From positions 658,893-722,892 of the forward strand of contig SCUL01000002.1 in the NCBI GenBank assembly GCA_004297205.1: a stretch of 64,000 nt of DNA, read 5' to 3'. The first letter of the stretch is position 1. The number at the start of each line of letters is the position of its first letter. The position numbers and the translations under genes are program-made. This stretch comes from Patescibacteria group bacterium (GTDB taxonomy: Bacteria > Patescibacteriota > Patescibacteriia > 2-12-FULL-57-11). Under the pieces are notes generated by a model. It had not been told where the DNA came from and searched no databases. It worked only from the letters and a program-made list of their open reading frames with translations. Below are positions 3,149 to 51,636 of this stretch, in pieces.

Positions 3149-4501
3149 TCAGGCGCGGCCTTGATCGCGGTCAATGGTGGGAGCGGCGTCCCGCTCGACG
3201 GTCGGTGAGTAGTCGCTCGAAGAGGAGATCGGCGCGCCGAAGACGTAGTTGCCGAAGAGGACGTCGGAGAGGTCGTCGACGAGCGTCGCCCACTGCGCGC
3301 CGTAGATCTCGGCCGCAATCTGTTCGTTCGGGAGCGCGCGGAGCTCGCCGCCCAAGGAAATCGCGTAGACGGTCGGGACGGACATGAATTTCACGAGGCG
3401 CACGCCCGGTCGGTAGCGTACGTTCGCGCCCAGGGGGATCGCCGCCATCTGGCTGATGGTGACCGTCTGGACCGAGGAGAAATCGGCGTACCAGGTGTAG
3501 TAGATGCTCGGCGTCGGGAAGGGATGCCGTTTGCCGTCCGATCCCACATAGTAGACGGCCGAGTCGGCTTGGGTCTCCGGGTTGTGATCGTCGGGAATCT
3601 TGATGAGCGAGCCGGCCGGCAGCGCGCCGCTCGATTCCGGCGTTGTGAACGTGGCATCGGTGGTGACGGTTTCGTTGCCGGCCTGGTCGCGCGCCCGGAT
3701 GCGGTAGTGGTAGAGCGAGTTCGAAGCGAGCGGGAAGAGGAGCACGCGATGGGTGCGCGCCGTCGAGGTCGTCGAGATGCTGCGGCCGTAGCTGGTGTCG
3801 AGGCCGAAGTCCACCGTCACGGTGGCGTCTTCGTCCGTGGAGAAAACAACCTCGGCACTCGTCAGATTCACGTTTTCGACGCGGCGCTCCGAGACCACCG
3901 GTCCGGCGGTGTCGGTGGGAGGCGTGAAGGTCACCACGAGTTCGGCAGGCTGCGCCGATTCGCGTGCGCCGTAGCCCCAGGTGAAGGCCGCGCCCGTTTC
4001 GCGCGAGGCGATCATCATGCCGGTCGAGGTTGCCGGGGCGTTCACCATCTCTTGCAGGAGCGCGGTGATGTCGAGGGTCTGGGTGAGTTCATTGTGCGTG
4101 ACCAGGATCTCGGGGAGCGTCGTGCCGACGGTCGGCATGGTGTTCCAGGTGACCGCGGTTTCTTCCCAGGCGGACGTCGTGCCGGAGACGAACAACGGCA
4201 GGGTGGTCCCACCCGACGTCGTGCGCAGGTGCAGGGACAGGTTGGCGTCCGAAACGACGGAGCCGACCGGAATCTGCGACAGGTCGTACCGGAGAAGCAG
4301 ACGGCTGCGCGTGGGCGGGGTGCCGAGGACGAGGAAGAGGTTGTCCTGGGTGCCCCAGTTTCCCGCAGGGGTGCCGGCATTCACGTAGGTGTCGGCGACG
4401 GGCAGAAGCGTCAGGGTGACGCTCTGGGCGGCCGCGGCCGGTGCGGGCGATGCGGCGGCCAAAAGAATGAGCGGAAGCAGGGAGCTGAGGAGTCTGCGCA
4501 T
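3149..4501 (-). CDS. secreted protein with DNRLRE-like beta-sandwich and fibronectin-III-like domains
   Basis: Internal Met of ORF 3149..5470. The upstream part of that long ORF is an artefact overlapping uvrA. Signal peptide MRRLLSSLLPLILLAAASPAPAAAA; LRYDLSQIPVGSVVSDANLSLHL segment; Fn3-like TSAEVVFSTDEDATVTVDFG...YHYRIRARDQAGNE. Confidence 0.6.
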   Translation of the reverse strand: MRRLLSSLLPLILLAAASPAPAAAAQSVTLTLLPVADTYVNAGTPAGNWGTQDNLFLVLGTPPTRSRLLLRYDLSQIPVGSVVSDANLSLHLRTTSGGTTLPLFVSGTTSAWEETAVTWNTMPTVGTTLPEILVTHNELTQTLDITALLQEMVNAPATSTGMMIASRETGAAFTWGYGARESAQPAELVVTFTPPTDTAGPVVSERRVENVNLTSAEVVFSTDEDATVTVDFGLDTSYGRSISTTSTARTHRVLLFPLASNSLYHYRIRARDQAGNETVTTDATFTTPESSGALPAGSLIKIPDDHNPETQADSAVYYVGSDGKRHPFPTPSIYYTWYADFSSVQTVTISQMAAIPLGANVRYRPGVRLVKFMSVPTVYAISLGGELRALPNEQIAAEIYGAQWATLVDDLSDVLFGNYVFGAPISSSSDYSPTVERDAAPTIDRDQGRA

Positions 4502-7464: not shown

Positions 7465-7500
7465 ATCAATCGCACGGCAGCATACATGCGCCGTGCGATG
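7465..7500 (-). terminator. hairpin terminator after the 7527..9038 gene
   Basis: 9-bp stem TCGCACGGC/GCCGTGCGA followed on the minus strand by a T-run (TTTTTG). Confidence 0.5.
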
Positions 7501-7526: not shown

Positions 7527-9038
7527 CTATCGGGCGCCTTCCATGCAATCCCAGAGGTCGCCGGAGATGGAGGCGATGACGGTTGCAACCAGGCTTCCCG
7601 GACTGCCGACCGGTCCGAGCGTCGACAAGGAACTACCCAGGGTTGTTGGTACGGCGTGACAGCCTGAGGGAATATCGCAGGGATTGTCACGACAGCCGTT
7701 CGGGAAGTTGGGAGCCGCTCGTAATGGATTGATCAGTACCGAGCCGCCACCGTACTGGTCTATTATCATTTCCTCCATGCGCAGCGTCGTGCTGCCGTGC
7801 CGCATCATGAGTTGCGCGTCATAATCGCCGCAGCTGCGGACGGCACTGCAATCGATCGTGGCAAGTGCGCAGACATCGAGTATTGCGTCGAATCTGCTGT
7901 CCTGGGCGTAGACGCAGTCCTTGTGCGTGCTCCCGGTGCTGATCGGTCGGAATCGTCGGCATGCGGCGTCATTTTCGGAGAGGCCCCAGTCGCTCAGATT
8001 TTCTTGTGTGATCGTCGGACAGGCCACGCAACCGTAGCCGCTTCTGCCGCGCAGCACGCAGGCTTCGTTTTCGCCGCTGCACACCCCCCACGTGCAGGTG
8101 TTGGTTGCCAGCCGGGTTCCATCCTGTCGCGCCACAGTTCCGTCTTCTCCGCAGCGCCCGGAGGTGGGCGTGACGGTGAACGTCGCACGGTCGAAGTCTT
8201 CGCATTTGTTCGCGGTGAGCGTCTCCACGGTTTGGATTTCCGGCACGATGATGTTGCGCAGCGTCACCAGATCCGGGTTGATCGTCTGGAGGAGCGTGAA
8301 TGAACCGAGCAGGAGCAGCAGGCCGAGAATGGCGTTGGTGATCCGGCCGCGCGCTGCGCCGACGGCCGAGGGGTTGCCGCGGGCCGTCATGTACTGGAAG
8401 CCGCCGACCACGACCATGACCATGGCGAGCGTCACCCCGACGCCGAGTCCGTAGCGGTAGAGGGCCGTGACGTAGGAGGGGATGTCCACGGCCGAGGCGT
8501 AGCTGCCGATGGTCACTTCGAGCGGAACGGGTCCGGCCGCGGGCTCCGGTTCCCCGCCGCTCGTTGTGGGACCGCCGGTCGGCGCCTCGCCCGCGACCGT
8601 GACCGTGACGGAGGCGCTTTCCGTGATCTGCCGGTCGTCCAGAAGCACGCGGCCGCGGAAGAGGTAGGTGCCCGGGGAGGACGGCGCCGGGATGTTGAAG
8701 TCCCAGTTGTCATCCGTCGCATCGCGGAATTCGGGGTTCGGGATCAGGTCCCAGGTCGGCGTTCGGCGGACGACGGAGTCGATGCTGTTGTAGGTCTGGC
8801 GCGTCTCGCCGACGAGGATCACGCTCGGGTCCGTCACCCCCTCGCCGTCGCACGGCGCGGTGAAGCGGAACTTGAAAGTGAAGCGCAGGGTGCTCCCCGG
8901 CGCCACGTCCGTTTTTGGGTTGACGTCGAACCGGACGGCCCCGGGCGTTTCGTCGCAGGGCGCGGCCAGGACCGGCGCCGGGAGGACCGCGGCGAGGACG
9001 AAGATGAGCGCGGCGAGGAGCGCGGGAGCGCGGCGCAT
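7527..9038 (-). CDS. secreted Cys-rich protein with a central TrbC/VirB2-like pilin hydrophobic hairpin
   Basis: Signal peptide [26 protein letters not shown] and an N-terminal beta-rich domain. After a Pro/Gly/Thr linker comes a TrbC/VirB2-like double hydrophobic segment ([27 protein letters not shown]...[21 protein letters not shown]). The C-terminal ~260 aa carry ~22 Cys. The start overlaps the stop of the DsbA-like gene. Confidence 0.55.
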
Positions 9039-9039
9039 A

Positions 9040-9786
9040 TCAGGAGGCGCTGCCGCCGGAGACGATCTGCCGGATGATGTCGCGCAGGATCGGGTAGGGG
9101 ATGGCGCCTTCGACGCGTGCGCCGTTGATGAAGAATGTCGGCGTTCCGCGCACGCCGGCGTCCTGCGCGTCGGCCACGTCGCGGTCGATTTCGGCGTCGG
9201 TCTCGGCGGAGGACAGGCACTGTTCGAAGCGCAGCAGGTCGAGTCCGATCTGCTGGGCGTAGAAGCTCAGGTCGTTGTCCTTGAGGGCGCCGGCGTTTTG
9301 GTACAGCTTGTCGTGCATGGCCAGGAACTTGCCCTGGAGGTCGGCGCAATTGGCGGCGCGCGCCGCGGCCCGGGCGCGCGGGTGGATGGAGTCGATGGGG
9401 AAGTCGCGGTAGATGAGGCGGACGTCGTTGGGGAATTCCGCCAGGACCTGACGCACGCTCGTAAAGGCCTCGCGCGAGAACGGGCATTCGAAGTCGGCGA
9501 ATTCCACGATCGTGATTTTGGCGTCGGCCGGTCCGACGGCCGGATCGTCGGCCGTGACCACGTCGGCGACGGGCGCGGCCGGGCGTTCGCGGCTGCCCGC
9601 GAGGGTCAGGCGCGTCGGATACTGGGGCAGGTCGATGATTCCGCCGCTCGAGATCAGGCGGTAAAAGAAGAACACGCGCCAGATGAACAGGAACAGGAGG
9701 ACGGCGAGGATCGCCCCCACGGCCGTGCCGATGACGGTCAGGGGATGGTGGCGCCAGGAGCGCGCGTTTGTCTCGGCCTCGGGCAT
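9040..9786 (-). CDS. membrane-anchored DsbA-like thioredoxin-fold protein with CPFS (CxxS) active site
   Basis: Internal Met MPEAETNARSW of ORF 9040..10368. N-terminal TM helix, thioredoxin/DsbA-like fold (ITIVEFADFECPFSREAF ... GTPTFFING). The second active-site Cys is replaced by Ser (codon TCG). Confidence 0.7.
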   Translation of the reverse strand: MPEAETNARSWRHHPLTVIGTAVGAILAVLLFLFIWRVFFFYRLISSGGIIDLPQYPTRLTLAGSRERPAAPVADVVTADDPAVGPADAKITIVEFADFECPFSREAFTSVRQVLAEFPNDVRLIYRDFPIDSIHPRARAAARAANCADLQGKFLAMHDKLYQNAGALKDNDLSFYAQQIGLDLLRFEQCLSSAETDAEIDRDVADAQDAGVRGTPTFFINGARVEGAIPYPILRDIIRQIVSGGSAS

Positions 9787-14360: not shown

Positions 14361-14748
14361 GACGCCCAGGAAACCAGACGACCGCGGCGATTCCTTCGGG
14401 AATCGTTGAGGAAAGTCCGAACACCGATGCCGTCGCAAGGCGGCATGAGTGGCAGTCGCGAAATGCGACCGGGAGCAAGGGATCGATCGTTCTCTCGGGT
14501 TACGAGAGAGTGGCTGATCCTCCAAGCCCAGGGACAGTGCAACAGAAAAGACACCGCCGATGGCCCCGCAAGGGGATCAGGTAAGGTTGAAATCGTGGGG
14601 TAAGAGCCCACGCGGGACATGCCTCGTGAGGGGCGCCGTGGAAAACACCTGCCCGGTGCAAGAGCAAGTTTGGTCGCTCGCATAGAGAGATGGTCGTCAC
14701 TCCGCTTCGGCGGGGGACAGAATTCGGCTTACCGGTTTGCTGGGTGTC
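14361..14748 (+). ncRNA. rnpB: RNase P RNA, bacterial type A
   Basis: P4 strands GAGGAAAGTCCG (14408-14419) and ACAGAATTCGGCTTAC (14717-14732). A long run matches the E. coli M1 RNA core: CCAGGGACAGTGCAACAGAAAAGACACCGCCGATGGCCCCGCAAGGGGATCAGGTAAGGTTGAAATCGTGGGGTAAGAGCCCAC. A ~15-bp P1 helix pairs the 5' and 3' ends. All ORFs across it are artefacts. Confidence 0.9.
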
Positions 14749-14758
14749 TTTTGAGAGG

Positions 14759-16162
14759 ATGCTTTTTCGTATGATGAAACGCCTCGATCTCGCGTTTCTG
14801 GCCCTGCGCCTGCCGCTCGACTACTTCGCCATCCTCGGCGCCGGTATCGCGGCCTATTTTCTTCGCTTCCAAACGTTCGCCGAATTCCGTCCGGCCACGG
14901 AAATCATCAGCTTCCCGGCCTACCTCGCGCTCATCTCCGTCGGCGCGCTGCTGTGGATGGGAGCACTTGCGCTCTCCCGGCTGTATGCGCCCGGCCGCAT
15001 CCGCACGCTGGATGAAATCGGCCGCATCCTTGCGGGTTGCTCCACGGCGCTTGCGGTGCTCGTGCTCGTCATCTTTTTCCGGCGAGAATTGTTCGCCTCA
15101 CGTTTTATCGTGCTCGCGGTCTGGGCGCTGTCGATCGTCTTCCTCTTTGTGGAACGCATGGCGCTCCGGGCCCTGCAGACCTACCTCTATAAGAAGCGCT
15201 ATGGGAACCGCGCCATCGCGGTCGTCGGCTCCGGCCGCGCCGCGGGCGCCGTCGCCAAGGAGCTGGCCGCTGCCCCGACCATGGGCTACGAGGTGCGCGG
15301 CAGCGTGCCGGACCTCTCCGAAAAGAGCCTGGCCCGCCTGAAGAAGTTGCGGGCTGAAGCGCGCGGACTCGAGGAAATCTTCCTGGCCGATCCGACCGTG
15401 CCTGCCGCTGACCTGGCCCGCCTCTTGGAATTTTCCGATGCCTATCAGGTCGGCATCCGCTACAACGCGGACCTGCTCGCCGGCCGGCGCGTCGGTTTTG
15501 ACGTCGCCATGTTCGGCGGCGTGCCGTTCGTCGAAGTGAAGCGCACCCCGCTCGAGGGCTGGGGCCGCATCTACAAGCGCGCCTTCGATATCATCGCGGC
15601 GGCCGTCTTGCTCGTCCTCACGAGTCCGCTGCTTCTTGTCGTGGCGCTGTCGGTGAGAGCGACCTCGCCGGGTCCGGTGCTCTTCATCCGCAAGCGGGTG
15701 GGGGAGAACGGCCGGCTGTTTCCGTTCTTCAAGTTCCGCTCGATGCGGCTCGATGCGCCGGAAGACTTGGCCGAGCGCAAACGCCACTCGGAGCGGCCGG
15801 GCATCATCCCCAAGCTTCCGGACAACAGCCGTTGGGTGACGCCGGTCGGCCGCTTCATCCGTCGCTGGAGCATCGACGAGCTGCCGCAGCTTTTGAATGT
15901 CCTGCGCGGGGAGATGAGCCTGGTCGGTCCGCGCCCGCATCTGCCCGAGGAAGTCGCGCAGTACGCCGCGCACCACAAAAAACTGCTTCTGGTGAAGCCG
16001 GGCGTCACCGGTCTGGCCCAGATTTCGGGGCGCGCCGACCTGACCTTCGAGGACGAAGCCGCCTTGGATCTTTCTTATATCGAACGCTGGTCGCCCAAGC
16101 TCGACCTCTCCATTTTGTTCAAAACGCCGCTCGCGGTGTTGTCCAAGAAGGGCTCGTATTAG
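14759..16162 (+). CDS. polyprenyl-phosphate sugar phosphotransferase (bacterial sugar transferase, WbaP/EPS family)
   Basis: Internal Met of ORF 14690..16162; the upstream part overlaps rnpB. N-terminal TM helices; C-terminal PF02397-like domain (RAFDIIAA...LFIRKRVGENGR..FKFRSM...DELPQLLNVLRGEMSLVGPRP...KPGVTGLAQI). Confidence 0.8.
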   Translation: MLFRMMKRLDLAFLALRLPLDYFAILGAGIAAYFLRFQTFAEFRPATEIISFPAYLALISVGALLWMGALALSRLYAPGRIRTLDEIGRILAGCSTALAVLVLVIFFRRELFASRFIVLAVWALSIVFLFVERMALRALQTYLYKKRYGNRAIAVVGSGRAAGAVAKELAAAPTMGYEVRGSVPDLSEKSLARLKKLRAEARGLEEIFLADPTVPAADLARLLEFSDAYQVGIRYNADLLAGRRVGFDVAMFGGVPFVEVKRTPLEGWGRIYKRAFDIIAAAVLLVLTSPLLLVVALSVRATSPGPVLFIRKRVGENGRLFPFFKFRSMRLDAPEDLAERKRHSERPGIIPKLPDNSRWVTPVGRFIRRWSIDELPQLLNVLRGEMSLVGPRPHLPEEVAQYAAHHKKLLLVKPGVTGLAQISGRADLTFEDEAALDLSYIERWSPKLDLSILFKTPLAVLSKKGSY

Positions 16163-16248
16163 GGCGTAGAGGGTGGGGGTAGCGTGTCGGGGCGCGATGA
16201 CCGCGCCCCTGCTGTTTTTTTCTGGGAATCCGGTAAAGTGAGCCGGCT

Positions 16249-17361
16249 ATGCGGATCGCGCTTGTCCACGATTACCTGTCCCAGGACGGCGGGGCGGAGC
16301 GGGTGCTCCGGGCCATGCATGAGCTGTGGCCGGAAGCCCCGATCTTCACCCTGTTCCACGACCCGGAACGGGCCAACCCGGCCTTCCGGGAGATGCGGAT
16401 CGTGACCTCCTCCCTGCAGCGGGTGCCGCTTGCGGTGCGCCACTTCCGCTGGTTCCTGCCGGCCATGCCGCTCGCCACCGAGAGCCACGACCTGTCCGGC
16501 TACGACTTGGTGCTCTCCTCCAGCTCGATGTTCGCCAAGGGCGTGATCACGTCGCCGGAGACCCTGCACCTTTCCTATTGCCACACGCCGACGCGTTTCC
16601 TCTGGACGGACCGCCGGACCTACCTCGACCAGAACGTGCCGACCCCGCTGCGCCGCCTGCTGCCGCCCATCATGACCGCGCTGCGCAGCTGGGACCGTTT
16701 GTCCGTGGAGCGCGTCGACCGTTTCATCGCCAATTCCCGGACCGTCGCCGACCGCATTTGGAAGTACTACCAGCGCCGCGCCGACGTCCTGCATCCGCCG
16801 GTCGACGTTTCCGCCTTCACGGTCGGGCAAGGAACCGGCGGCTACTACCTGACGGGCGGCCGGCTCGTCGCCTACAAGCGGTTCGACCTGGCGGTGCGCG
16901 CCTTCTCGAAGCTCGGCGTGCCGCTCAAGGTCTTCGGCGAAGGGCCGGAGCTGCGGGCGCTCCGCGGCATGGCCAAACGCAACGTGGAATTCCTGGGCCG
17001 CGTCGACGACGCCACGCGCGCCGCGCTGTACCGCGACGCCGCGGCGTTCGTCCATCCGCAGATCGAAGATTTCGGCATCACCGCGCTTGAAGCCATGGCC
17101 AGCGGACGGCCGGTCATCGCCTATCCCTCCGGCGGCGCCACCGAAACCGTGAAGAGCGGGGAGACCGGCGTTTTTTTCGACGAGCAGTCCTGGGAAAATC
17201 TGGCCCATGCCGTGATCCGCTTCGCGCCCGAGCGTTTCGATCCGGCGCGCATCCGCGCCCACGCCGAGCAGTTCGCCACGCCGCTCTTTTTGTCGCGGCT
17301 CTCCGGCTACGTCGCCGAGCGCTACCGCGAATTCCGCGACGGCCGCTTCGAGCGGCGTTGA
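16249..17361 (+). CDS. glycosyltransferase family 4 (GT-B)
   Basis: MRIALVHDYL... N-terminus and a C-terminal EDFGITALEAMASGRPVIA GT4 sugar-donor motif. Confidence 0.8.
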   Translation: MRIALVHDYLSQDGGAERVLRAMHELWPEAPIFTLFHDPERANPAFREMRIVTSSLQRVPLAVRHFRWFLPAMPLATESHDLSGYDLVLSSSSMFAKGVITSPETLHLSYCHTPTRFLWTDRRTYLDQNVPTPLRRLLPPIMTALRSWDRLSVERVDRFIANSRTVADRIWKYYQRRADVLHPPVDVSAFTVGQGTGGYYLTGGRLVAYKRFDLAVRAFSKLGVPLKVFGEGPELRALRGMAKRNVEFLGRVDDATRAALYRDAAAFVHPQIEDFGITALEAMASGRPVIAYPSGGATETVKSGETGVFFDEQSWENLAHAVIRFAPERFDPARIRAHAEQFATPLFLSRLSGYVAERYREFRDGRFERR

Positions 17362-17364
17362 CCT

Positions 17365-18546
17365 ATGCTGGTCTTTGACGCGCGTTCGCTGGCCGACGCC
17401 AAACCGAGCGGCGTGCACGGCGTGACCCGCGCCTGGGCGCGCGGGCTCGCCGCGGCGCTTCCTCCGGGTGCGTTCGTGGCCGTAGCCAATGCCGCCGGCG
17501 CCGGAGCGGTGCGGGCCCGCGCCGCACTCGGTCCCGACGTGCCGCTCGTGGTGCGCCGCTTTCCCAACAAGCTCCTGCATGCCGCCATGCGTTTCCTTGG
17601 CGTCCCGACCATCGAAGCGTTGGCCCGCGCCCCGCGCGGATCAACGGTCATCGCCAATCCGCATTTCCTGCGCGTGCGGCCGGACGCGACGTTCGTGCTG
17701 ATCGTGCATGACCTCTCGTATTTCCGCGAGCCGCACTTTTTTTCCCGGCGGATGCGGCTGTGGCACCGGGTGGTCGACTTTCCGCGGCTCATCGCCCGGG
17801 CTGACCGCATCGCCGTCTGTTCGGCCCACACCAAGCGCGACCTGATGGAACTGTTCGCCGTGCCTGCCGCGAAGATCGGCATCATCCGTCCGTCGATCGA
17901 TCCTGCGCTGTTCTCTCCGCCGGCCGCGGCGGCCCGTGACGCCGCGCGCGCGGCCCGCGGCATTCCACGCGACTATGCCTTCGTCTTTTCGGACGGGCCG
18001 CGCAAGAACCTGGCCGCGGCGCTCTCCGGCATCGCCGCCGCGAAGACCGACCTGGCCGTTGTGGTGGCCGGCTCCGAACACCCAAAGGCCGTCGCCGCCG
18101 CGGCACGCGCCGCGGGGATCGCGGAACGCGTGCTGGCGCTCGGCTACTGCGACGACCGGGAGCGTGCAGCGCTTTTGTCCGGGGCGCGGCTCTTGCTCTA
18201 TCCCTCGCTCTACGAAGGCTTCGGACTGCCGCCGCTCGAAGCCATGGCGCTCGGCGTTCCGGTCATCGCCGCCCACGGCTCGGCACTCGGGGAAACGGCC
18301 GGGGACGCCGCGGTCCTTGTGGATCCGCAGGATGCCGCTTCCGTGACCTGCGCGGTGGAGAGGGTGCTCTCCGAGCCCGCCGCGACGGCCGCCCGCGTGG
18401 CCCGGGGGCGGGAGCGGGCCGCTGCGTTACGCCCGGAAAAAGCGGTCAAAGACCTGCTCATGCTCATCAAAGACGCCCGCCACGCGCCGCTCCGGGCGAA
18501 GCGGGCCGCCGCTGTGGTACACTACCGCCATGCGCATCGGGATTGA
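17365..18546 (+). CDS. glycosyltransferase family 4 (GT-B)
   Basis: YEGFGLPPLEAMALGVPVIA motif. The start lies 4 nt after the previous stop. Confidence 0.75.
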   Translation: MLVFDARSLADAKPSGVHGVTRAWARGLAAALPPGAFVAVANAAGAGAVRARAALGPDVPLVVRRFPNKLLHAAMRFLGVPTIEALARAPRGSTVIANPHFLRVRPDATFVLIVHDLSYFREPHFFSRRMRLWHRVVDFPRLIARADRIAVCSAHTKRDLMELFAVPAAKIGIIRPSIDPALFSPPAAAARDAARAARGIPRDYAFVFSDGPRKNLAAALSGIAAAKTDLAVVVAGSEHPKAVAAAARAAGIAERVLALGYCDDRERAALLSGARLLLYPSLYEGFGLPPLEAMALGVPVIAAHGSALGETAGDAAVLVDPQDAASVTCAVERVLSEPAATAARVARGRERAAALRPEKAVKDLLMLIKDARHAPLRAKRAAAVVHYRHAHRD

Positions 18547-19621
18547 CGCGCGAATGGCCGGTGAAACGGGAATCGGCCGGTACGTCACGCGGCTCGTGGA
18601 GGAGCTCGCCGCGATGCGCCCGCCTGGGTTTGAATTCGTGCTCTTTGAGAGAAATCCTGCCGCCGGAAAATTCGCCGCAACCGGCTTTCCGTCCGTGGCG
18701 GCGCCGCCGCGCTGGTACACCGTCCGCGAGCAGCTTCAGATGCCCGGCATCTTCCGCCGCGAGCGGCTCGACCTGCTGCACGTGCCGCATTGGAACGTGC
18801 CGCTCCTGCCGGTCGGCGCGCCGGTCGTGGTGACGATTCACGACCTGATCCTGCTGACGCATCCCAGCCGTCGCGCATCGCTCGGCGGACCGCTGCGCCA
18901 CGTCGTGAAGAATGCCGCCTACCGCCGCGTGCTCAGGCACGCCCTGCGCGGCAGTCGGAAGATCATCGCCGTGTCCGAGACGACCGCCGCCGACATCCGT
19001 CGGCATGATCCGTCCGTCGCGGACAAGGTCGTGGCCATTCCGCTCGGCGGTCCGGAGCTCGCGGCGCGATCCGCAGCGGCTGTTCCGCCGCCTGCCGGAC
19101 GTTACTTGCTCTACGTCGGCAATGCCTACCCGCATAAAGACGTGGAGACGCTCCTTGCCGCGGTTGCAATGCTGCGCGCCTTGCCGGAGTTCGGCGATGT
19201 GCGTCTGCTCTGGATCGGTCAGGACGATTTCTTTTCGAAGCGCGTGCGCGCTTCGGACGCCTGGCGGAAACTCGGAGAGGTCGCCGCGTGGCTCGGAGCG
19301 GTCGGCGACGCTGAACTGGCCGCCGCCTACCGCGGCGCCCAAGCGCTCGTGACTGCGACGCGCGCCGAGGGCTTCGGCCTGACGCCGCTCGAAGCGCTGG
19401 CCTTCGGCACGCCTGCGGTCGTCACCGACATTCCCGTGCACCGCGAAGTGCTCGGTGCCGCCGCACGCTACGCCCCGCCCGGAAACGCCGCCGGTCTCGC
19501 CGCTGCAATCGCAGCCACGCTCCGCGATCCGCAGGCCCGCGCCGTGGCCGCCCCCTCCCGTTTCTCCTGGCACCGCATGGCCGAACAGACACTCACCGTT
19601 TACGCCGCAGCCCTCGCATAA
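18530..19621 (+). CDS. glycosyltransferase family 4 (GT-B)
   Basis: MRIGIDAR... N-terminus and AEGFGLTPLEALAFGTPAVV motif. Overlaps the previous gene by 17 nt. Confidence 0.75.
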   Translation: MRIGIDARMAGETGIGRYVTRLVEELAAMRPPGFEFVLFERNPAAGKFAATGFPSVAAPPRWYTVREQLQMPGIFRRERLDLLHVPHWNVPLLPVGAPVVVTIHDLILLTHPSRRASLGGPLRHVVKNAAYRRVLRHALRGSRKIIAVSETTAADIRRHDPSVADKVVAIPLGGPELAARSAAAVPPPAGRYLLYVGNAYPHKDVETLLAAVAMLRALPEFGDVRLLWIGQDDFFSKRVRASDAWRKLGEVAAWLGAVGDAELAAAYRGAQALVTATRAEGFGLTPLEALAFGTPAVVTDIPVHREVLGAAARYAPPGNAAGLAAAIAATLRDPQARAVAAPSRFSWHRMAEQTLTVYAAALA

Positions 19622-19625
19622 CCGC

Positions 19626-22373
19626 ATGGCGAAACGCCTTTCCAAACCGAACGACACGCGCACCGTCCGCACCCTCGCCGCCCTGCGGAAACTTGTGCGT
19701 GGATCGCGGCCGGCGCCGCGTTCCGTCGCGCGCGTGCTGCGCGCCGAAGTCGCGGCACCCGTTGCGCCCCCGCCCGTCGCGTTTTCCGAAGATCGCGCCC
19801 GTGCCATCGCCCGGGCCCTGGCTGCCGCGCCGGATGCGCCGCACCGCTCGCCCGCCGCGCTTTCCATCCGTTCGCACGTCGCCGCGCCCTTGTCGCCTCA
19901 CCTCGTTGAGGCGCGCGCCTCCGGCGTGCCGGACCAGGCGGAGCCCACACGGACCGTGCGCCGCACCGGGATGTTGCGCGCCGTGGCCGATTGGACGTCG
20001 GCCGTGCTCGGCGCGCCGGCCCGCCACAGCGCGGAGCTCCGCCTCAACCCGCATCGCGCCGATCAGGTGCGGCCGGACGCCTTCGCCGCCCGCGTCCGTC
20101 TCCACGCCGATATTCCGGCCGCGCTCGTCCGGGGATTGTCGGATGCCGCCGCAGACGGCGCGTCGATCTTGGTCCGACCCTTCGATGCTGCGTTCAATGC
20201 CGGATCAGGCGACCGGCTGCAGCCGCTCCTGCCCTACACCGCCTCCGCCGTGCCGGAGCATGCCGAGCTGGAGATACCCGAACATGTGACGGCCCACATG
20301 CGCGCGCCGCTCCGAACCGATGCGCCGCCGACACTCACGGATGAGGCCTCGGACTACTGGTTCTCCGGCTTGTTGCCATTCGGGCTGGCCGGCAACTGGC
20401 GCCGCTCGTTGGTCGCCGTCGCGGTCATCGCCATCGTGGCCCTCCTGCCCGTCCATTTCTCGGGGGCGTATGCCAGCGCCCGCCGCTTGGTGGCCGACGT
20501 GCGCGTGCGCGGCGACCAGGCCGTCGCTGCCATGCGCTCGGCCGGTGAAGCCGCGGCGGACCGGGATCTCCCGGCCACGACCTCGGCTTTGGCCGCCGCC
20601 TCGGCCGCCTTCGGCGACGTACGCGCCGCGCTCGGCCCCGTGGGGGGCGCGCTCGTGACGCTGGCTGACAAGCTGCCGGGCGGATCGCGCGCCGCGGCGG
20701 GCGCGGCGCTCTTCACCGCAGGCGACACCTTCACCCGCGCGGGCGAAGAGATCGCCACGCGTTTGGCCGCGCTGGAGCATGACGCGCCGCCCACGGCGGT
20801 CCTGGCCGCGCTGCGCGAGAGCGTGGCGCGCCTGGGCCCTGACGTGGCGCGGGCCGCCGAAGCACTCGCCGCCATCGATCCGGAAGACATCCCGGCCGAG
20901 CACCGCGCCGAAATCGCCGCGCTTGCCGCGAGCGCCGGCGGCATCCGCCAGGCCTTTGCTGATTTCCTGCCGCTGGCCGATGCCACCGGGTCGCTGCTCG
21001 GCGCCGACGGCAGCCGCCGCTATCTGCTCGTCTTCCAGAACCAGCACGAGCTGCGTCCGACCGGCGGGTTCATCGGCAGTTTTGCCGAAGTGACGCTCAA
21101 AGACGGCCGCATCAGCGACGTGCGTTTCCCGCCGGGCGGCTCCTATGACATCCAGGGCGACGTGCGCGCCTGGCTGAACCCGCCGGATCCGCTCCGGCTC
21201 GTGGCCGGCCGTTGGCGCTTCCATGACGCCAACTGGTTCCCGGACTTTCCGACGTCGGCCCGCAAGCTTTCCTGGTTCTACGAAAAGAGCGGCGGTCCGA
21301 CCGTGGACGGCGTGATCGCCGTGAATGCCACGGTGCTGTCCGAATTGCTGGCCGTCGTGGGGCCGGTGGAGATGCCGGACTACGGCGTGACGCTGACCTC
21401 GCAGAACGTCCTCGACGAAGTCCAGCGCGCCATCGAACTGCACCCGGCCGATCCGGCCAAGCCCAAGCAGATCCTAGCCGACCTCATGCCGCTCCTGCTC
21501 GCCCGCCTGCAATCGCCGAGTCCGCAGATGAGCTTGGCGCTTGCCGAGCTCGTCGGTCGCGGACTGGCCGCGCGCCGCATCCAGATCAGCGTCGACGACC
21601 CCGCCGTGGCGGGGACCTTTGCCAGCTTCGGCTGGGACGGTGCGCTCAAGCAGACCGACGGCGACTATCTCGACGTCGTGGTGACCAACATCGGCGGCGA
21701 AAAGACCGACGCCGTGATCCGCGACGACATCATGCATGAGATCGCCATCGCCCATGACGGGCGCGTGACCGACACGGTCACCATGACCCGCACCCACCGC
21801 GGCCGGGCCGGCGTCCCCATGACCGGCACCGGCAACTACACGTATCTGCGCATGTATGTGCCGGAAGGCAGCGCGCTCGTCTCCGCCGACGGCGATTTCG
21901 AGGCGCCGCGGGAGAACCTGTTCATCCCGCGCGAGGAGCGTTACGGCGACGATCCGGAGGTCGTGGCCCCGCTCACGAACGCCGCTGTGGACCGCGCCAG
22001 CGGCACCCGCGTCTATGAGGAACTCGGCAAGACTGTCTTCGCCAACTGGATGCGGTTGCTGCCCGGCGAAAGCAAGATGGTGCGTTTCACCTACGAACTG
22101 CCATTCCGCGTCACCGTGCCCGAGCGCGCCGAAGGCCTCGCCGCGGCGCTGGCCGCTCTTTCCGGCGCGCCGGAGCGGGGTCGCTACACGCTCCTTCTCC
22201 AGAAACAGTCCGGCGCCGAAGAACGCTACGTGACGGTGCGCGTGCGTCCGCCGCAGGGGATGCGTCCGCTCGCGGCCCTCCCGGACGAACTGACGCTGAC
22301 GGAGTCCGACGCCCGCCTCGACGTCTGGCACCAGGAGACCGACCGTTTCCTTGGCGTGCTGTTCGGCTTCTGA
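19626..22373 (+). CDS. large membrane-anchored DUF4012-like protein
   Basis: Internal Met MAKRLSKPNDTRT of ORF 19455..22373; the upstream part overlaps the GT4 gene. TM segment then RYLLVFQNQHELRPTGGFIGSFAEVTL... conserved core. The family assignment is from memory of the motif and is not verified. Confidence 0.7.
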   Translation: MAKRLSKPNDTRTVRTLAALRKLVRGSRPAPRSVARVLRAEVAAPVAPPPVAFSEDRARAIARALAAAPDAPHRSPAALSIRSHVAAPLSPHLVEARASGVPDQAEPTRTVRRTGMLRAVADWTSAVLGAPARHSAELRLNPHRADQVRPDAFAARVRLHADIPAALVRGLSDAAADGASILVRPFDAAFNAGSGDRLQPLLPYTASAVPEHAELEIPEHVTAHMRAPLRTDAPPTLTDEASDYWFSGLLPFGLAGNWRRSLVAVAVIAIVALLPVHFSGAYASARRLVADVRVRGDQAVAAMRSAGEAAADRDLPATTSALAAASAAFGDVRAALGPVGGALVTLADKLPGGSRAAAGAALFTAGDTFTRAGEEIATRLAALEHDAPPTAVLAALRESVARLGPDVARAAEALAAIDPEDIPAEHRAEIAALAASAGGIRQAFADFLPLADATGSLLGADGSRRYLLVFQNQHELRPTGGFIGSFAEVTLKDGRISDVRFPPGGSYDIQGDVRAWLNPPDPLRLVAGRWRFHDANWFPDFPTSARKLSWFYEKSGGPTVDGVIAVNATVLSELLAVVGPVEMPDYGVTLTSQNVLDEVQRAIELHPADPAKPKQILADLMPLLLARLQSPSPQMSLALAELVGRGLAARRIQISVDDPAVAGTFASFGWDGALKQTDGDYLDVVVTNIGGEKTDAVIRDDIMHEIAIAHDGRVTDTVTMTRTHRGRAGVPMTGTGNYTYLRMYVPEGSALVSADGDFEAPRENLFIPREERYGDDPEVVAPLTNAAVDRASGTRVYEELGKTVFANWMRLLPGESKMVRFTYELPFRVTVPERAEGLAAALAALSGAPERGRYTLLLQKQSGAEERYVTVRVRPPQGMRPLAALPDELTLTESDARLDVWHQETDRFLGVLFGF

Positions 22374-22374
22374 T

Positions 22375-24276
22375 ATGGCGAAGAAAGAGAAAAAGCCGAT
22401 GGTGCCGGTCGATGCCGTCGTCGAACCGCCGCCTCCGCCCGCACCCGTTTCCACGGAGGCGGATCTCGAGTACGACCTGCGCCAGATCTACGCCGGGGAC
22501 GACGGCAACATGCCGGACCTCCACACGCTGGAGAAAGCGCGCAGCAACCGGTTGCGCACCGCGCTCATCGCGTTGGTGTTCTTTTTCGGACTCTTGGCCG
22601 CGACGGCCTGGGCCGGGTTCTTTGTCTTCCAGCCGGGCGCGTTCCGCGGCGAAGGCGTCAAAGTCAGCGTCGCAGCGCCCGCACCGCTCGTGGCCGGCGG
22701 CATGGCCACGCTCAAGATCCGTTATGTGAACGGGGAGCGCGTGGCGCTCGGTTCGTTCGAAATCGCCGCCACGTTTCCCGAAGGGTTCCATATGATTTCC
22801 GCCACGCCGCCGCCGATCGAAGGGACGCGCTGGATCATCGGGTCGTTGGGCAGCGGCCAGAGCGGGGAGATCGAAGTGACGGGGACGGTCGACGGCGCCG
22901 TCGGCACGCCGCTGGCCTTTTCCGCCTACGGCACCTACATTCCGGCCAATTTCAATTCCGAATTTCAGTCCGTCGGTTCGCTCACCACCGGGGTCGCCGA
23001 CTCCGTGCTGAAGCTCTCCGTTTCGGGACCGGACCGGACTCCGGCAGGGGAGGCGGTCACGTACCTGGTGCGCTACGAGAACGCCGGCGACGTCACCTTG
23101 TCGGGCGCTGCGGTCGAACTGACGCTGCCGCCGGACTTGCTGATCGAATCCGTGACGCCTGCCCAGCGCGTCGAGGACCGCCGCGTGCCGCTGCCGGACA
23201 TCCTGCCCGGCGCGAGCGGCGAGATAGCCGTCCGCGGCAGCTACGCCTCGGAAGCCAGCGGCCAGCGCATCGTCTCGGCCACGGCCGGCGTGCTCGCTCC
23301 GGACCAGCGGCTCGCCGTCTACGCGCGCGCCGAAGGCCGGACCGACGTCGTCGGCGGCGACCTGGTGCTGACCGCGGTCACGAACGGCGTCTCCGGCACC
23401 GGCCGCGTCAATTTCGGCGACACGTTGCGCACCACGCTGACCTATGAGAACCGCGGCTCGGTCGATTTGAGCGGCGTCGACATCACGCTCGTCTACGAGG
23501 CGCGGCCGACTGCGGGTGGGTCGTTTCTGAATTTTGAGACGCTGTCTGACGAATCCGCCGGGGTGCGCGAGGGCGGCCGCGTCACCTGGACCAAGACGCA
23601 GATCGCCCGGCTGGCGAAGCTCGCGCCCGGCGACGAAGGCACGATCGACGTCAGCATCAACCTCGCCGACGCGCCGTTCAGCTTGTCCGACCGCGCGTAC
23701 GCCGTCGACGTTTCGGCCGAGGCGCGCGTCGCCAAGGTCGGCGACCTGCCGGTCGGTCGCGCCGTGAAGAGCGCCAAGACGACGCTCTCCTTGAACTCCG
23801 ACCTGCGCTTCGGCGCCGCGACCCGCTACTTCAACGACGACGACCTGGCCGTCGGCACCGGGCCCGTGCCGCCGCGCGTCGGCGCCACCACCACCTACCG
23901 CGTTTTCTGGACGGCGGACAACACGCTCCATGAGCTCACCGGACTCACTCTGCGCGTTCCGTTGCCGCCGGGCGTTGCCTACGCCGAGCGCGGCCAGGCC
24001 TCGGCCGGAGAAATCCGTTTCGACACCGCGAGTTCCACGGTCGTCTGGACGTTGAACCGCATGCCGGAATCGGTGACCCGCCTCGACGGCGCCTTCGACG
24101 TGCGCATCGTGCCGACCGCCGCCGATGCCGGAAAGATTCTGTCCTTGACCGGCCCGCTCAGCTTTGAAGCGACCGACACCGCGGCCGGCGGCATCATCGT
24201 CCGCACCATCGAGCCGCTCGACACCAACCTCGAAACCGATCCTCAGGTCTCCGGAAAAGGAAACGTCATCGAATAG
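22375..24276 (+). CDS. membrane-anchored cell-surface protein with DUF11/CARDB-like repeats
   Basis: Short cytoplasmic N-terminus, one TM segment (LRTALIALVFFFGLLAATAWAGFFVF), then at least 4 repeats of the type VTYLVRYENAGDVTLSGAAVELTLPPDL. The start is 2 nt after the previous stop. Confidence 0.6.
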   Translation: MAKKEKKPMVPVDAVVEPPPPPAPVSTEADLEYDLRQIYAGDDGNMPDLHTLEKARSNRLRTALIALVFFFGLLAATAWAGFFVFQPGAFRGEGVKVSVAAPAPLVAGGMATLKIRYVNGERVALGSFEIAATFPEGFHMISATPPPIEGTRWIIGSLGSGQSGEIEVTGTVDGAVGTPLAFSAYGTYIPANFNSEFQSVGSLTTGVADSVLKLSVSGPDRTPAGEAVTYLVRYENAGDVTLSGAAVELTLPPDLLIESVTPAQRVEDRRVPLPDILPGASGEIAVRGSYASEASGQRIVSATAGVLAPDQRLAVYARAEGRTDVVGGDLVLTAVTNGVSGTGRVNFGDTLRTTLTYENRGSVDLSGVDITLVYEARPTAGGSFLNFETLSDESAGVREGGRVTWTKTQIARLAKLAPGDEGTIDVSINLADAPFSLSDRAYAVDVSAEARVAKVGDLPVGRAVKSAKTTLSLNSDLRFGAATRYFNDDDLAVGTGPVPPRVGATTTYRVFWTADNTLHELTGLTLRVPLPPGVAYAERGQASAGEIRFDTASSTVVWTLNRMPESVTRLDGAFDVRIVPTAADAGKILSLTGPLSFEATDTAAGGIIVRTIEPLDTNLETDPQVSGKGNVIE

Positions 24277-44937: not shown

Positions 44938-45011
44938 GGGCCGCTAGCTTAGTGGCAGAGCACCCGGTTTGCATCCGGGAGATGAGGGTTCGATTCCCTC
45001 GCGGTCCACCA
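44938..45011 (+). tRNA. tRNA-Ala (anticodon TGC), CCA encoded
   Basis: Acceptor GGGCCGC/GCGGTCC with the G3.U70 Ala identity pair, anticodon loop TTTGCAT, T-arm GAGGG-TTCGATT-CCCTC, 3' ACCA. Confidence 0.85.
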
Positions 45012-45171
45012 GAGAGAACCTAACCCAGACAATAAGGTGGAAGTGCATGACGGCGCTCAAGAAAGCGCCGTTTTCGTTCCCGATCGATCCGGGTAGTTCC
45101 GTCCACGACACCAGGAGAGAAACCGAACCCAAGATAAAGAAAGAGACTGAGCAAAGTCAGTCTCGTGGACG

Positions 45172-45393
45172 TCAGTCGTCCTGGCTATCTCCGCTCTCAT
45201 CGGGGATTACGCCCCAAAGGCGGAGGTAGGGCTTTCCGAACGTGGTTCCCATGAAGAAGCCGACCTGGATCGCGACGAACGCGACCGCAGTCGGCCACCA
45301 GAGGGGAACAAGGAACGAGAGCACGAGAACGTTTCCGAGCAGATGTGCCGTGGCGAACTTCCACTGACGCTGAGTTCCCATTCTCGGGTTCAC
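45172..45393 (-). CDS. hypothetical small membrane protein (2 TM helices)
   Basis: 73-aa ORF with two hydrophobic helices. Confidence 0.4.
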   Translation of the reverse strand: MNPRMGTQRQWKFATAHLLGNVLVLSFLVPLWWPTAVAFVAIQVGFFMGTTFGKPYLRLWGVIPDESGDSQDD

Positions 45394-45432
45394 TCCTTTC
45401 CCGAGATCGAAGACCCAGCCCCGATGGAATCT

Positions 45433-45972
45433 CTAGCCTGTACGACGCAGCTCTACGTACAGAATCATGATTCCTGACTCGTCGATACGATTCGCTACCA
45501 AGTAGCCCGTCATCGCGTCGCCCATCGGACTGATTTGGAGTAGCCCGGCTCCGAAATCGTGCGTCCGAGGATCATCACTGGCAAACGCGAGTCGCACAAA
45601 GTCGTCGTGCTCGAAGTGCATGTCCTCGATGACCTCGTGGTAGTTCGAGCCTGCGCCCCCGTCCACGATCGTGACCGCCTCGATGATTCCGCCGAGTCCG
45701 CCCGCGGTCGGTACCAAAGTCAGGGTAACCTGGAAATGCCGGGCCGGGGATCCCAGAGCAGCGTGACCCGCGTTGACAATGACTTCGTCAGATACTCCCT
45801 CCCATCGCCCGGTCACATCGCGGGTGGGCGACTCTGCTGCTGCGACGGGCGTCGGACTTCCACGGCCAGTCGTGAGAGTTGCGGCCGCGGTGATGAGAGA
45901 TGCCAGGATCGCGGTCCCCGCGCCCACGAGCGTCATCGTTCGCGTCGACCAGCTGCGCGCTGCCATGCTCAC
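45433..45972 (-). CDS. hypothetical secreted protein
   Basis: 179 aa with N-terminal signal-like segment MSMAARSWSTRTMTLVGAGTAILASLITAAA. Confidence 0.5.
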   Translation of the reverse strand: MSMAARSWSTRTMTLVGAGTAILASLITAAATLTTGRGSPTPVAAAESPTRDVTGRWEGVSDEVIVNAGHAALGSPARHFQVTLTLVPTAGGLGGIIEAVTIVDGGAGSNYHEVIEDMHFEHDDFVRLAFASDDPRTHDFGAGLLQISPMGDAMTGYLVANRIDESGIMILYVELRRTG

Positions 45973-46010
45973 CTCCGTGTGGGCGTCCTCGGGTTACCCT
46001 GCCCGGACGT

Positions 46011-47480: not shown

Positions 47481-47481
47481 A

Positions 47482-47510
47482 CTGAGGTGGTTACGGGTTA
47501 CCACCTCAGC
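47482..47510. promoter_or_regulatory. GC-rich hairpin CTGAGGTGG-ttacgggttac-CCACCTCAG abutting the recombinase start codon
   Basis: 9-10 bp stem immediately 5' of the recombinase ATG. Candidate operator or att-associated site. Confidence 0.35.
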
Positions 47511-47699
47511 GTGCCAAACATCATCTCGAGGACGAACGCGCGTCGTCAGTGGGAGAACGGGACGAAGATGTCCCCACCCAGCATGCAGAATCGTAACGGC
47601 GGTGGGAGGTGGGCGTGGGACACACGATGTCGACAGTTGTCCACAAATCGAGAGCGGTGTGATTGAATTGGCGCCAGCCGGCTGCTGATCTCAAAGAGA

Positions 47700-47733
47700 A
47701 AACCCCTCGGCGCAGGACGTCCGAGGGGTCTCG
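47700..47733 (-). terminator. rho-independent terminator after the Cas2-like gene
   Basis: CCCCTCGG-cgcaggacgt-CCGAGGGG, followed on the minus strand by TTTTCTCTTT. Confidence 0.65.
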
Positions 47734-47742
47734 ATCGGTGGC

Positions 47743-48015
47743 TCAGCTGACGTTATTGTGCATCCACCGGAGGACGACGTCGTCAAGATTTTCAGACCAC
47801 CAAGAAGTCGTCATCCTGGTGATCAGCAGCCGGTCATTCGCGTCGAGACCGCCGGAGCCAAGGAGGTGGGTACGGAGTTCATCGCCCGAGAGAGACGTCT
47901 TCACCAGCCAGACGGATTCAAGAGGCCTGGCATAGGCGAACTGCCGCAGCGCCGCGTGCAATGTCGAATAGTCCTTCCCCACCTTCCGGAGATCGTAGCT
48001 GACCAAGTAGGTCAT
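47743..48015 (-). CDS. stand-alone Cas2/VapD-like small protein
   Basis: 90 aa, MTYLVSYDL...VGKDY..ALRQFAYARPLESVWLV... matches the Cas2 beta-alpha-beta layout (YDV....VAK...YG.RVQNSVF). No cas1 and no CRISPR array in the window. Confidence 0.35.
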   Translation of the reverse strand: MTYLVSYDLRKVGKDYSTLHAALRQFAYARPLESVWLVKTSLSGDELRTHLLGSGGLDANDRLLITRMTTSWWSENLDDVVLRWMHNNVS

Positions 48016-48147
48016 GTGATTGTTGGGCCGCCAGTGTGCTACACTAGTCGTGGTCCTGCTCCACGTCGCGCGTGCTTGGAGCGGCCGCTCTAGGAATGAA
48101 TGGACCGTTATCCCGGTCCATTCGGTATTTTCCCGCAGGTGTGAATC

Positions 48148-48177
48148 TTTGTCAACTTACTCCACACGGGTTGACAA
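48148..48177 (+). promoter_or_regulatory. inverted repeat TTGTCAAC-N13-GTTGACAA overlapping a -35 TTGACA upstream of the XRE gene
   Basis: Perfect 8-bp arms. The right arm contains TTGACA about 31 nt upstream of the ATG. Candidate autoregulatory operator. Confidence 0.45.
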
Positions 48178-48207
48178 CATCCATGTGCCTTGTAAAGATA
48201 GACCTCT

Positions 48208-49013: not shown

Positions 49014-49099
49014 GTGCGATTCCACTTCGCTTTCAGGAAGTGATTTCTAACATCGTTGATTGGGGTCCACCAAAAGGATTCCAGCATTTGCCATGAAAT

Positions 49100-49660: not shown

Positions 49661-49663
49661 GAT

Positions 49664-50125: not shown

Positions 50126-50187
50126 GAGAGGATAAATTCGGTGAAATAGCTGCTAGAATCAGAGAGGTGGAGGGACGGTCGTAGCCG

Positions 50188-51589: not shown

Positions 51590-51609
51590 ACTCGACTTCG
51601 CCATCGCAC

Positions 51610-51633: not shown

Positions 51634-51636
51634 GTA

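Follow-up and report, generated by a model that had tools for sequence, protein, structure and literature searches.

Gene organization of the locus

We analyzed a 64-kb window (64,000 nucleotides) of contig SCUL01000002.1 from a Patescibacteria group bacterium, in which two adjacent genes encode a 503-residue protein with a pilin-like transmembrane (TM) hairpin (hereafter protein A) and a 248-residue DsbA-like protein (hereafter protein B). Both products are also called independently, with the same lengths, on a Logan contig; the two open reading frames (ORFs) proposed in an earlier sequence-only reading of this DNA, the upstream one encoding a membrane-anchored thioredoxin-fold protein, are therefore real. 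Protein A is identical to the NCBI hypothetical protein EPO33_04720 (Patescibacteria group bacterium), and the existing annotations are "hypothetical protein" for protein A and "DsbA family protein" for protein B. Contrary to the earlier reading, the two genes do not overlap but are separated by a single base between the stop codon of the protein B gene and the start codon of the protein A gene, a junction compatible with coupling by termination and reinitiation. Downstream of the protein A gene, a consensus scan placed a weak terminator-like hairpin, which may, with low confidence, mark the end of a two-gene operon before uvrA; the scan returned four sites, against 2.4 expected by chance. The GC content of the window is approximately 65%. 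The coordinates of all features of the pair are collected in Table 1. The observations described below are best explained if these two genes constitute a conserved unit on the chromosome of a Patescibacteria lineage that resembles Uhrbacteria.

Table 1 Features of the gene pair and its products, in window coordinates
Feature	Position	Strand	Details
Hairpin protein (protein A) gene	7527-9038	-	503 aa; stop codon 7527-7529
DsbA-like protein (protein B) gene	9040-9786	-	248 aa from Met at 9786; stop codon 9040-9042
Gene junction TGA-t-ATG	9036-9042	-	stop 9042-9040, spacer base 9039, start 9038-9036
Weak terminator-like hairpin, then ATTGATTTTT	7471-7490	-	between the protein A gene and uvrA; consensus scan
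Protein A, signal peptide, aa 1-25	8964-9038	-	MRR, hydrophobic core, VLA/A; hydropathy and sequence reading; predicted cleavage site
Protein A, Ig-like beta-sandwich N-terminal ectodomain, aa 26-150	8589-8963	-	AF2 and Foldseek; Cys28 and Cys63 invariant
Protein A, Gly/Pro/Thr-rich flexible linker, aa 151-170	8529-8588	-	composition; within aa 151-189, which have pLDDT <50
Protein A, T4SS-pilin-type module, aa 171-262	8253-8528	-	conserved pre-helix, TM1, basic loop, TM2, TINPDL motif
Protein A, C-terminal 16-Cys ectodomain, aa 263-503	7530-8252	-	~241 aa; no Pfam family, no known fold
Protein B, N-terminal TM anchor, aa 16-38	9673-9741	-	Kyte-Doolittle
Protein B, active site C101-P-F-S104	9475-9486	-	TGC CCG TTC TCG; resolving Cys replaced by Ser
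Protein B, G214-T215-P216 cis-Pro loop	9139-9147	-	invariant in 99/99 CxxS homologues; predicted cis conformation
Protein B, helical-insert segment, Cys147 to Cys190	9217-9348	-	Cys147 at 9346-9348, Cys190 at 9217-9219; both Cys in 98/99 homologues

Protein B is a DsbA-like protein with a natural CxxS site

Protein B matches the Pfam families Thioredoxin_4 (PF13462; E = 1.3e-26) and DSBA (PF01323; 1.3e-20), and its Kyte-Doolittle windows exceed 1.6 from residues 13-29 onward, with a peak of 2.64, in agreement with the membrane-anchored DsbA-like protein of the sequence-only reading. Among solved structures, its nearest relatives are 3gyk, the DsbA chains 4pwo/4pwp, the thioredoxin-domain protein 7unn, and ScsC; we take 4pwo/4pwp and 7unn to be actinobacterial MdbA. 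The fold with the helical insert and the cis-Pro loop are both those of DsbA, but the CxxC dithiol is missing: in the active-site context D98-F-E-C101-P-F-S104, the N-terminal Cys is kept and the resolving Cys is replaced by Ser, as in thioredoxin-fold proteins of the CxxS class. Cys147 and Cys190, in the helical insert, form a probable structural disulfide.

The CPFS motif was examined in the best 120 homologues, 99 of which carry Cxx[S/T], as CPFS, CPYS, or a similar form, and 21 CxxC. Within the CxxS group, Cys101 is invariant (99/99) and Ser104 is present in 98/99. Every homologue named as Patescibacteria or Uhrbacteria is CxxS or CxxT, and P0097 (Baltobacteraceae), the named homologue from outside the Patescibacteria, is CxxC. 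Homologues of 404-431 residues are mostly CxxC; of these, P0028 (locus L009) was checked and proved to be an archaeal tandem-DsbA protein, and P0055 has CPFS. The CxxC proteins of this length are probably tandem-DsbA proteins and irrelevant here. Because Ser104 is shared by almost the whole clade and all named Patescibacteria are CxxS or CxxT, a sequencing error, which the sequence-only reading had considered for the Ser, is rejected, and the Ser is a clade trait of Patescibacteria. Selenocysteine at the resolving position is likewise rejected, as the codon is TCG and not TGA; protein B has a weak NCBIfam match to a thioredoxin-like selenolipoprotein family. By these sequence features, we assign protein B as a membrane-tethered DsbA/MdbA-like thioredoxin-fold protein with a natural CxxS site. 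We found no literature discussing a CxxS DsbA in Patescibacteria.

Domain architecture of protein A

The signal-peptide-like N-terminus, the beta-rich N-terminal domain, the Pro/Gly/Thr linker, and the double hydrophobic segment that had been read from the sequence of protein A are all borne out, and the C-terminal domain had been overestimated in both size (~260 residues, against ~241) and Cys content (~22, against 16). The whole protein has 18 Cys residues, namely, Cys28 and Cys63 in the N-terminal domain and 16 at residues 279-498 in the C-terminal domain, where they probably form eight disulfides. We rejected a lipoprotein identity of protein A because the residue preceding Cys28 is Pro, Asp, or similar and there is no lipobox.

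In the AlphaFold2 (AF2) model, the N-terminal domain has eight strands with a predicted local distance difference test (pLDDT) score of ~80 (blocks 67-85), and a Foldseek search against the Protein Data Bank (PDB) matched it to NPC2/ML and CARDB beta-sandwiches with E values of 2.5e-5 to 4e-4. This two-Cys Ig-like domain is a trait of the close subfamily; most relatives have an N-terminal domain with ~10 Cys. Hydropathy places the hydrophobic helices at residues ~192-216 (TM1) and ~233-252 (TM2), with three Arg in the loop between them, and the corresponding AF2 helices span residues 185-218 and 223-253. A separate AF2 model of the C-terminal domain gave a pLDDT of 74.5 and a predicted template modeling (pTM) score of 0.66. 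This domain had no match in Pfam or NCBIfam and no sequence match in the PDB, and Foldseek found no similar fold (best E of 1.3 in the PDB and 0.21 in BFVD). Together with the scarcity of conserved residues other than Cys (see below), these results leave an enzyme function of the C-terminal domain unsupported.

Size and conservation of the protein A family

A word-index search found nine full-length homologues of protein A with 46-76% identity, in which all 18 Cys are invariant, and two further proteins sharing only the hairpin; the same search with the hairpin alone returned no matches. An exhaustive HMMER search with the nine-sequence profile against 1.84 billion cluster representatives gave 27,922 matches at E <= 1e-3, 8852 at E <= 1e-10, and 122 at E <= 1e-30. 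Most of the best 150 matches align from the hairpin through the C-terminal domain, and most top matches are 400-600 residues long and have both this hairpin and a 16-Cys C-terminal domain. Protein A thus belongs to a very large Patescibacteria family, and its architecture, which the sequence-only reading did not know as a characterized one, is not rare in sequence space; the hairpin is also found fused to GDSL and lytic transglycosylase (SLT) domains.

We compiled 151 related proteins (147 listed matches together with P0001, P0010, P0011, and the weaker P0280), which have a median length of 498 residues and the hairpin at residues ~129-226. The part before the hairpin usually has ~10 Cys, and the part after it has a median of 259 residues and 16 Cys, the number being even in 95% of the proteins. 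The C-terminal domain is common to 131 of 152 related proteins (E < 1e-3). In 100 representatives used to assess conservation (19-37% identity to protein A), each of the 16 Cys of this domain is 89-96% conserved, and only G297 and Y406 among its other residues reach ~90%; E280, P355, S356, D380, D452, and P453 are 60-82% conserved. Identity across these representatives is 41% for the hairpin, 18% for the C-terminal domain, and 8% for the N-terminal domain; in the close family, it is 86% for the hairpin and 47-56% for the other domains. The hairpin is therefore the most conserved part of protein A.

Relationship of the hairpin to type IV secretion pilins

Residues 199-244 of protein A match the Pfam family T4SS_pilin (PF18895), named for the type IV secretion system (T4SS), with a score of 26.6 bits (E = 6.5e-6), a marginal match because it equals the gathering cut-off of 26.6 bits. 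No match to the classical TrbC/VirB2 profile (PF04956) was obtained at E <= 1, and no solved pilin in the PDB matched the sequence. NCBIfam gave a weak match (E = 0.015, residues 189-253) to the Mbov_0395 pilin-like conjugal transfer family of the Mycoplasma integrative and conjugative element (ICE). The relatives are clearer: PF18895 is matched by 99 of 100 distant relatives (best E of 9.8e-28) and PF04956 by 8 of 100 (best E of 6.7e-8), and 4 of 100 contain an SLT domain. The motifs GGxQY...AKxRIxNA...G...NPxL are kept across the hairpin family. These profile matches place the hairpin in the T4SS-pilin (VirB2-like) superfamily at the family level, and a generic TM hairpin is rejected. The TrbC/VirB2 likeness noted in the sequence-only reading accordingly stands for the superfamily and was not recovered for protein A itself with the TrbC/VirB2 profile.

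Protein A shares with canonical pilins the PF18895 match, the signal peptide, and two hydrophobic helices with a short basic loop. It departs from them in its size of 503 residues, in the position of the hairpin, with ~145 residues before and 241 after the pilin module, and in having no linkage to T4SS genes. Small pilins of the canonical kind are found elsewhere in the phylum: loci L015, L016, L017, L018, and L020, from Saccharibacteria, Doudnabacteria, and another bacterium, contain tandem arrays of 5-10 small T4SS_pilin genes (120-250 residues), most with the hairpin at the C-terminal end; most of the canonical array pilins end within ~10 residues of the hairpin. The hairpin of protein A is 31-41% identical to the tandem-array pilins of Saccharibacteria and Doudnabacteria. 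These small proteins are the VirB2-like pilins that have been catalogued for Patescibacteria, widely together with a T4SS (PMC12102498), and that are essential in Ca. Southlakia epibionticum (PMC10633639). No VirB4 gene lies within 6 kb of the arrays of L016 and L018, so that there is no direct T4SS link at these two loci; a gene for a 922-residue SLT-domain protein adjoins the array of L018.

Conservation of the gene pair

Eleven loci were sampled, the window among them. In nine of them, a gene for a CxxS DsbA is followed directly by the hairpin gene with gaps of -11 to +15 nt (-11, +1, +15, -1, +1, and +3 nt at the six measured junctions), whereas the flanking genes are separated by 60-500 nt. 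This adjacency persists down to ~44% identity between the DsbA proteins and ~28% identity between the hairpin proteins, in loci spanning 47-66% GC. The order SecG / DsbA(CxxS), hairpin protein, UvrA was observed in the window, L002, L004, L006, a JGI 312-kb contig, L008, L010, L012, and L013. In P0010, P0011, and L006, the C-terminal domain has been swapped for an unrelated one that is still Cys-rich (24-30 Cys), and the pairing is kept. Because the two genes form a conserved and tightly spaced pair, the dedicated folding partnership suggested in the sequence-only reading is a reasonable proposal, with the qualification that the pairing is not obligatory.

The pair lies among housekeeping genes. 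On one side are SecG (divergent), an SBP_bac_5 solute-binding protein, a tRNA, RNase J, and RNase P RNA; on the other are UvrA, a CBM96 protein, L19, cytidylate kinase, and pseudouridine synthase; tRNA synthetases, ribonucleotide reductase, and pentose-phosphate enzymes lie further out. Neither the window nor the annotated syntenic loci of relatives yielded a T4SS gene (VirB4, VirB6, or VirB3/PrgI). This absence, at a pair embedded in a housekeeping block, leaves a pilus role unsupported. The window also contains no other hairpin or pilin paralogue, and no VKOR, DsbB, or CcdA was found among the window genes scanned (~7% of ~856 kb). An enzyme with a CxxS site could not use DsbB or VKOR for reoxidation in the usual way.

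Locus L014 (contig CAZYLV010000001.1, 4815-8817) belongs to the same metagenome-assembled genome (MAG), CAZYLV01, as the orthologous locus L013. Its genes encode, in order, a ClpB-like protein, a PD40-repeat protein, a CxxC DsbA, a 26-Cys hairpin protein, a GDSL/T4SS_pilin/SLT fusion, RadA, and RecG. The DsbA-like protein has a CEYC site and 33% identity to protein B, and the hairpin is 57% identical to that of protein A. L014 fuses the hairpin to GDSL and SLT domains and encodes a second Cys-rich hairpin protein, which shows that the hairpin carries extracytoplasmic domains of various kinds, VirB1-like cell-wall hydrolases among them. Here and in the paired loci, a DsbA gene recurs immediately upstream of Cys-rich hairpin genes, and at least one related genome, this MAG, has both a CxxC and a CxxS DsbA. 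The C-terminal region of the 26-Cys protein appears CHAP/NlpC-like by eye. The MAG is labelled "uncultured Gammaproteobacteria bacterium"; this label is probably a misassignment because gene content and synteny match the Patescibacteria loci.

Proposed function of the pair

We propose that protein A is a surface adhesin, anchored or docked through its hairpin and folded by protein B, a dedicated monothiol disulfide isomerase or holdase. The gene structures, families, conservation, and synteny described above are direct observations, and the reading that we build on them, which includes the topology, the disulfides, the client relationship, and the adhesive role, has in our estimate about an even chance of being right. 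Protein A would be exported by the Sec pathway, and after cleavage of the signal peptide, its hairpin would span the membrane twice in the order outside, TM1, cytoplasmic basic loop, TM2, outside. The N- and C-terminal domains would then both lie outside the cell because the two TM helices return the chain to the same side. The signal peptide, the two TM helices, the three-Arg loop, and the even, invariant Cys counts of 2 and 16 in the ectodomains are all consistent with this topology. The Ig-like beta-sandwich, with one disulfide, would sit on the flexible linker, and the C-terminal domain of 240 residues would be locked by eight disulfides. Because few residues other than Cys are conserved, the ectodomains most likely serve in binding or adhesion and not in catalysis. 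As the most conserved part, the hairpin most likely does more than anchor the protein and probably docks it to the hairpins of other proteins or to an apparatus resembling a T4SS.

With Ser in place of the resolving Cys, protein B cannot cycle as an oxidase. CxxS thioredoxin-fold proteins isomerize or hold disulfides and do not oxidize or reduce them (PMC12384036), and by analogy with natural and engineered proteins of this kind, protein B most likely acts as a mixed-disulfide isomerase or holdase. It would attack disulfides or thiols of its client through Cys101, form transient mixed disulfides, and hold or shuffle them. The client would be the emerging, co-translated, Cys-rich protein A, until its native set of disulfides has formed, and a CxxC paralogue or non-enzymatic oxidants would carry out the initial oxidation. 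Mt-DsbA of Mycobacterium tuberculosis, which is of the same type of subfamily as protein B and carries a DxxCxYC and Thr-cisPro signature, is an isomerase and does not oxidize hirudin (PMC3853704). Thr before the cis-Pro and Asp in DxxCx[FY], the signature noted for this isomerase-active enzyme (PMC3853704), are both present in protein B.

Several points weigh against this proposal. The C92S (CxxS) mutant of Mt-DsbA lost isomerase activity in vitro (PMC3853704), so that such activity is not guaranteed for a CxxS DsbA. L007 has the DsbA gene without a hairpin gene and L011 a hairpin gene without the DsbA gene, and the adjacency could simply follow from a strongly conserved housekeeping order (RNase J, SBP_bac_5, SecG, DsbA, hairpin protein, UvrA). 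The PF18895 score of protein A itself lies at the threshold, and the AF2 models of protein A and its C-terminal domain (pLDDT 67 and 74.5, respectively) were built on only nine sequences.

A more far-reaching version is that hairpin subunits with disulfide-locked adhesin domains build a T4SS-type filament or lattice, with the monothiol DsbA as their quinone-independent folding catalyst in a lineage lacking a respiratory chain. We regard it as highly speculative and quite improbable; if it were true, the hairpin would be a general display module that also bears cell-wall-degrading enzymes to the host surface.

Alternative interpretations

Protein B may instead be a general extracytoplasmic thiol enzyme, or a thiol-dependent protectant linked to sulfenic acids or low-molecular-weight thiols, whose adjacency to the hairpin gene is simply inherited. 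The synteny of the whole RNase J-to-UvrA block across loci of such different GC content would be expected in that case, as would the two loci in which one gene occurs without the other, and MdbA-like proteins are a core family enriched in the Candidate Phyla Radiation (CPR) (10.1101/335083). Inherited order, however, does not readily account for the close spacing kept at all six measured junctions within a block of much wider gaps, for a downstream partner that remains Cys-rich after its C-terminal domain has been replaced, or for the CxxC paralogue placed likewise just upstream of Cys-rich hairpin genes. We therefore consider this explanation possible but unlikely.

The proposal of an anchored surface adhesin must also be weighed against readings in which protein A is a pilus component. 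It could assemble together with small VirB2-like pilins, as a minor, tip, or base subunit, and display one or a few copies of its ectodomains on a pilus or T4SS channel. The single copy in the window, set beside the arrays of small pilins elsewhere in the phylum, is consistent with this role, as are the 31-41% identity to the arrayed pilins and the ectodomains that vary while the hairpin stays constant. None of the 11 loci, however, links the hairpin gene to a pilin array or to T4SS genes, and we know of no VirB2-type pilus that uses a pilin-fold tip subunit; a tip role is rather unlikely.

Alternatively, protein A could itself polymerize into a VirB2-type helical filament through a T4SS encoded elsewhere, forming a pilus decorated with its own domains. 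The termini of the pilins in solved conjugative pili face outward, so that terminal fusions are geometrically conceivable. Membership in the T4SS-pilin superfamily, including the relatives that also match TrbC/VirB2, and the far stronger conservation of the hairpin and basic loop than of the ectodomains favor such a role, and Patescibacteria widely encode a T4SS with VirB2-like pilins, which are essential in one cultured species (PMC12102498, PMC10633639). We nevertheless judge it improbable: VirB4, VirB6, and VirB3 are missing from the window and every syntenic locus; the canonical array pilins are short and mostly end soon after the hairpin; a thin filament could hardly accommodate the ~365 residues of folded domains that each subunit would bring; and the hairpin is also found on GDSL and SLT enzymes, which seem to have no need to polymerize. 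That the hairpin is a generic double TM segment with a spurious pilin likeness is scarcely credible, since the cut-off-level PF18895 score of protein A and its lack of PF04956 and solved-pilin matches are outweighed by the profile matches of the relatives, the independent Mbov_0395 match, and the motifs kept across the family.

Other features of the window

A gene for a CBM96-domain secreted protein (3149-4300, minus strand) lies just downstream of uvrA, and the same neighbor follows uvrA in L004, so that conservation of gene order reaches past the DsbA and hairpin genes. A bacterial RNase P RNA of class A (14366-14747, plus strand; 143 bits) overlaps the longest ORF of a sugar transferase (14690-16162) at its 5' end, and the true start of the latter is therefore probably further downstream. 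Downstream of the glycosyltransferase/sugar-transferase cluster (14690-18546), two adjacent genes at 19455-24276 encode probable surface proteins, one of 972 residues with DUF4012 and one of 641 residues with DUF11 repeats. A tRNA gene (44938-45008, plus strand) is followed by a gene for a large serine recombinase with Resolvase, Recombinase, and Zn_ribbon_recom domains (46011-47504, minus strand) and then by a low-GC block (0.51-0.53, against ~0.65) encoding an IrrE/Peptidase_M78-like protein, a cytidine deaminase, and an EamA transporter. The region 44938-52500 looks like a mobile element integrated at the tRNA gene.

Comparison with known systems

Proteins A and B both fall into named families. 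Protein A shares the signal peptide, the hairpin, and the short basic loop with the VirB2/TrbC pilins of T4SSs (PF18895; PMC12102498, PMC10633639), and the homology is evident at the level of hidden Markov models (HMMs). It differs in its length of 503 residues, in a hairpin placed mid-protein between two folded ectodomains, and in its location outside a T4SS gene context. The closest known counterparts of the L014 fusion, in which a hairpin 57% identical to that of protein A is joined to GDSL and SLT domains, are the monoderm VirB1-like SLT and CHAP hydrolases (PMC12102498); protein A, by contrast, has no hydrolase domain, and its ectodomains have no recognizable catalytic motif.

Pilin folding by a CPR MdbA-like enzyme is a published idea: in the CPR-enriched family 3.6k.fam00998, 92% of members have CxxC, VKOR is the commonest neighbor, and a role in folding pilins (type IV pilins) was proposed (10.1101/335083). 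Protein B resembles this family, actinobacterial MdbA, and Mt-DsbA in its TM anchor, its DsbA fold with a helical insert, its DxxCx[FY] motif, and its Thr-cisPro loop, and Cys147 and Cys190 correspond in position to Cys140 and Cys192, which form a structural disulfide in the Mt-DsbA helical domain (PMC3853704). In contrast to these proteins, protein B has CxxS instead of CxxC and no VKOR neighbor, and its neighbor is a T4SS-pilin-hairpin protein rather than a sortase or a type IV pilin. The clade of protein B probably lies within the 8% of the CPR MdbA-like family that lack CxxC. What appears to be undescribed is the clade-wide natural CxxS DsbA and the tight genetic coupling of a DsbA gene and a hairpin gene. 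Our results define a large unnamed family in which a conjugative-pilin hairpin bears folded disulfide-rich ectodomains, and a clade-wide natural CxxS DsbA genetically coupled to it. Much of the uncultured diversity of bacteria belongs to the Patescibacteria, which live in attachment to host cells. Few of their genes have been shown to be indispensable for this lifestyle, and those for surface and T4SS-like proteins are among them (PMC10633639); members of the protein A family are candidate host-binding proteins for structural and binding studies.

The nearest analogy for the proposed action of protein B lies in the endoplasmic reticulum (ER) of eukaryotes. Yeast Eug1p is a CxxS protein disulfide isomerase (PDI), and AGR2 serves a Cys-rich secreted client, mucin. 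Protein B shares the monothiol CxxS site with the ER proteins ERp44 and AGR2/AGR3, which isomerize or hold disulfides rather than oxidize or reduce them (PMC12384036). The analogy is one of mechanism only, as protein B is a bacterial DsbA with a helical insert, and not a PDI a-domain, and is predicted to be tethered to the membrane outside the cell. If the coupling to the hairpin gene is functional, it would bear on how disulfides are formed in organisms without quinones, and the monothiol PDIs that serve dedicated clients in the eukaryotic ER would have in protein B their first counterpart from bacteria.

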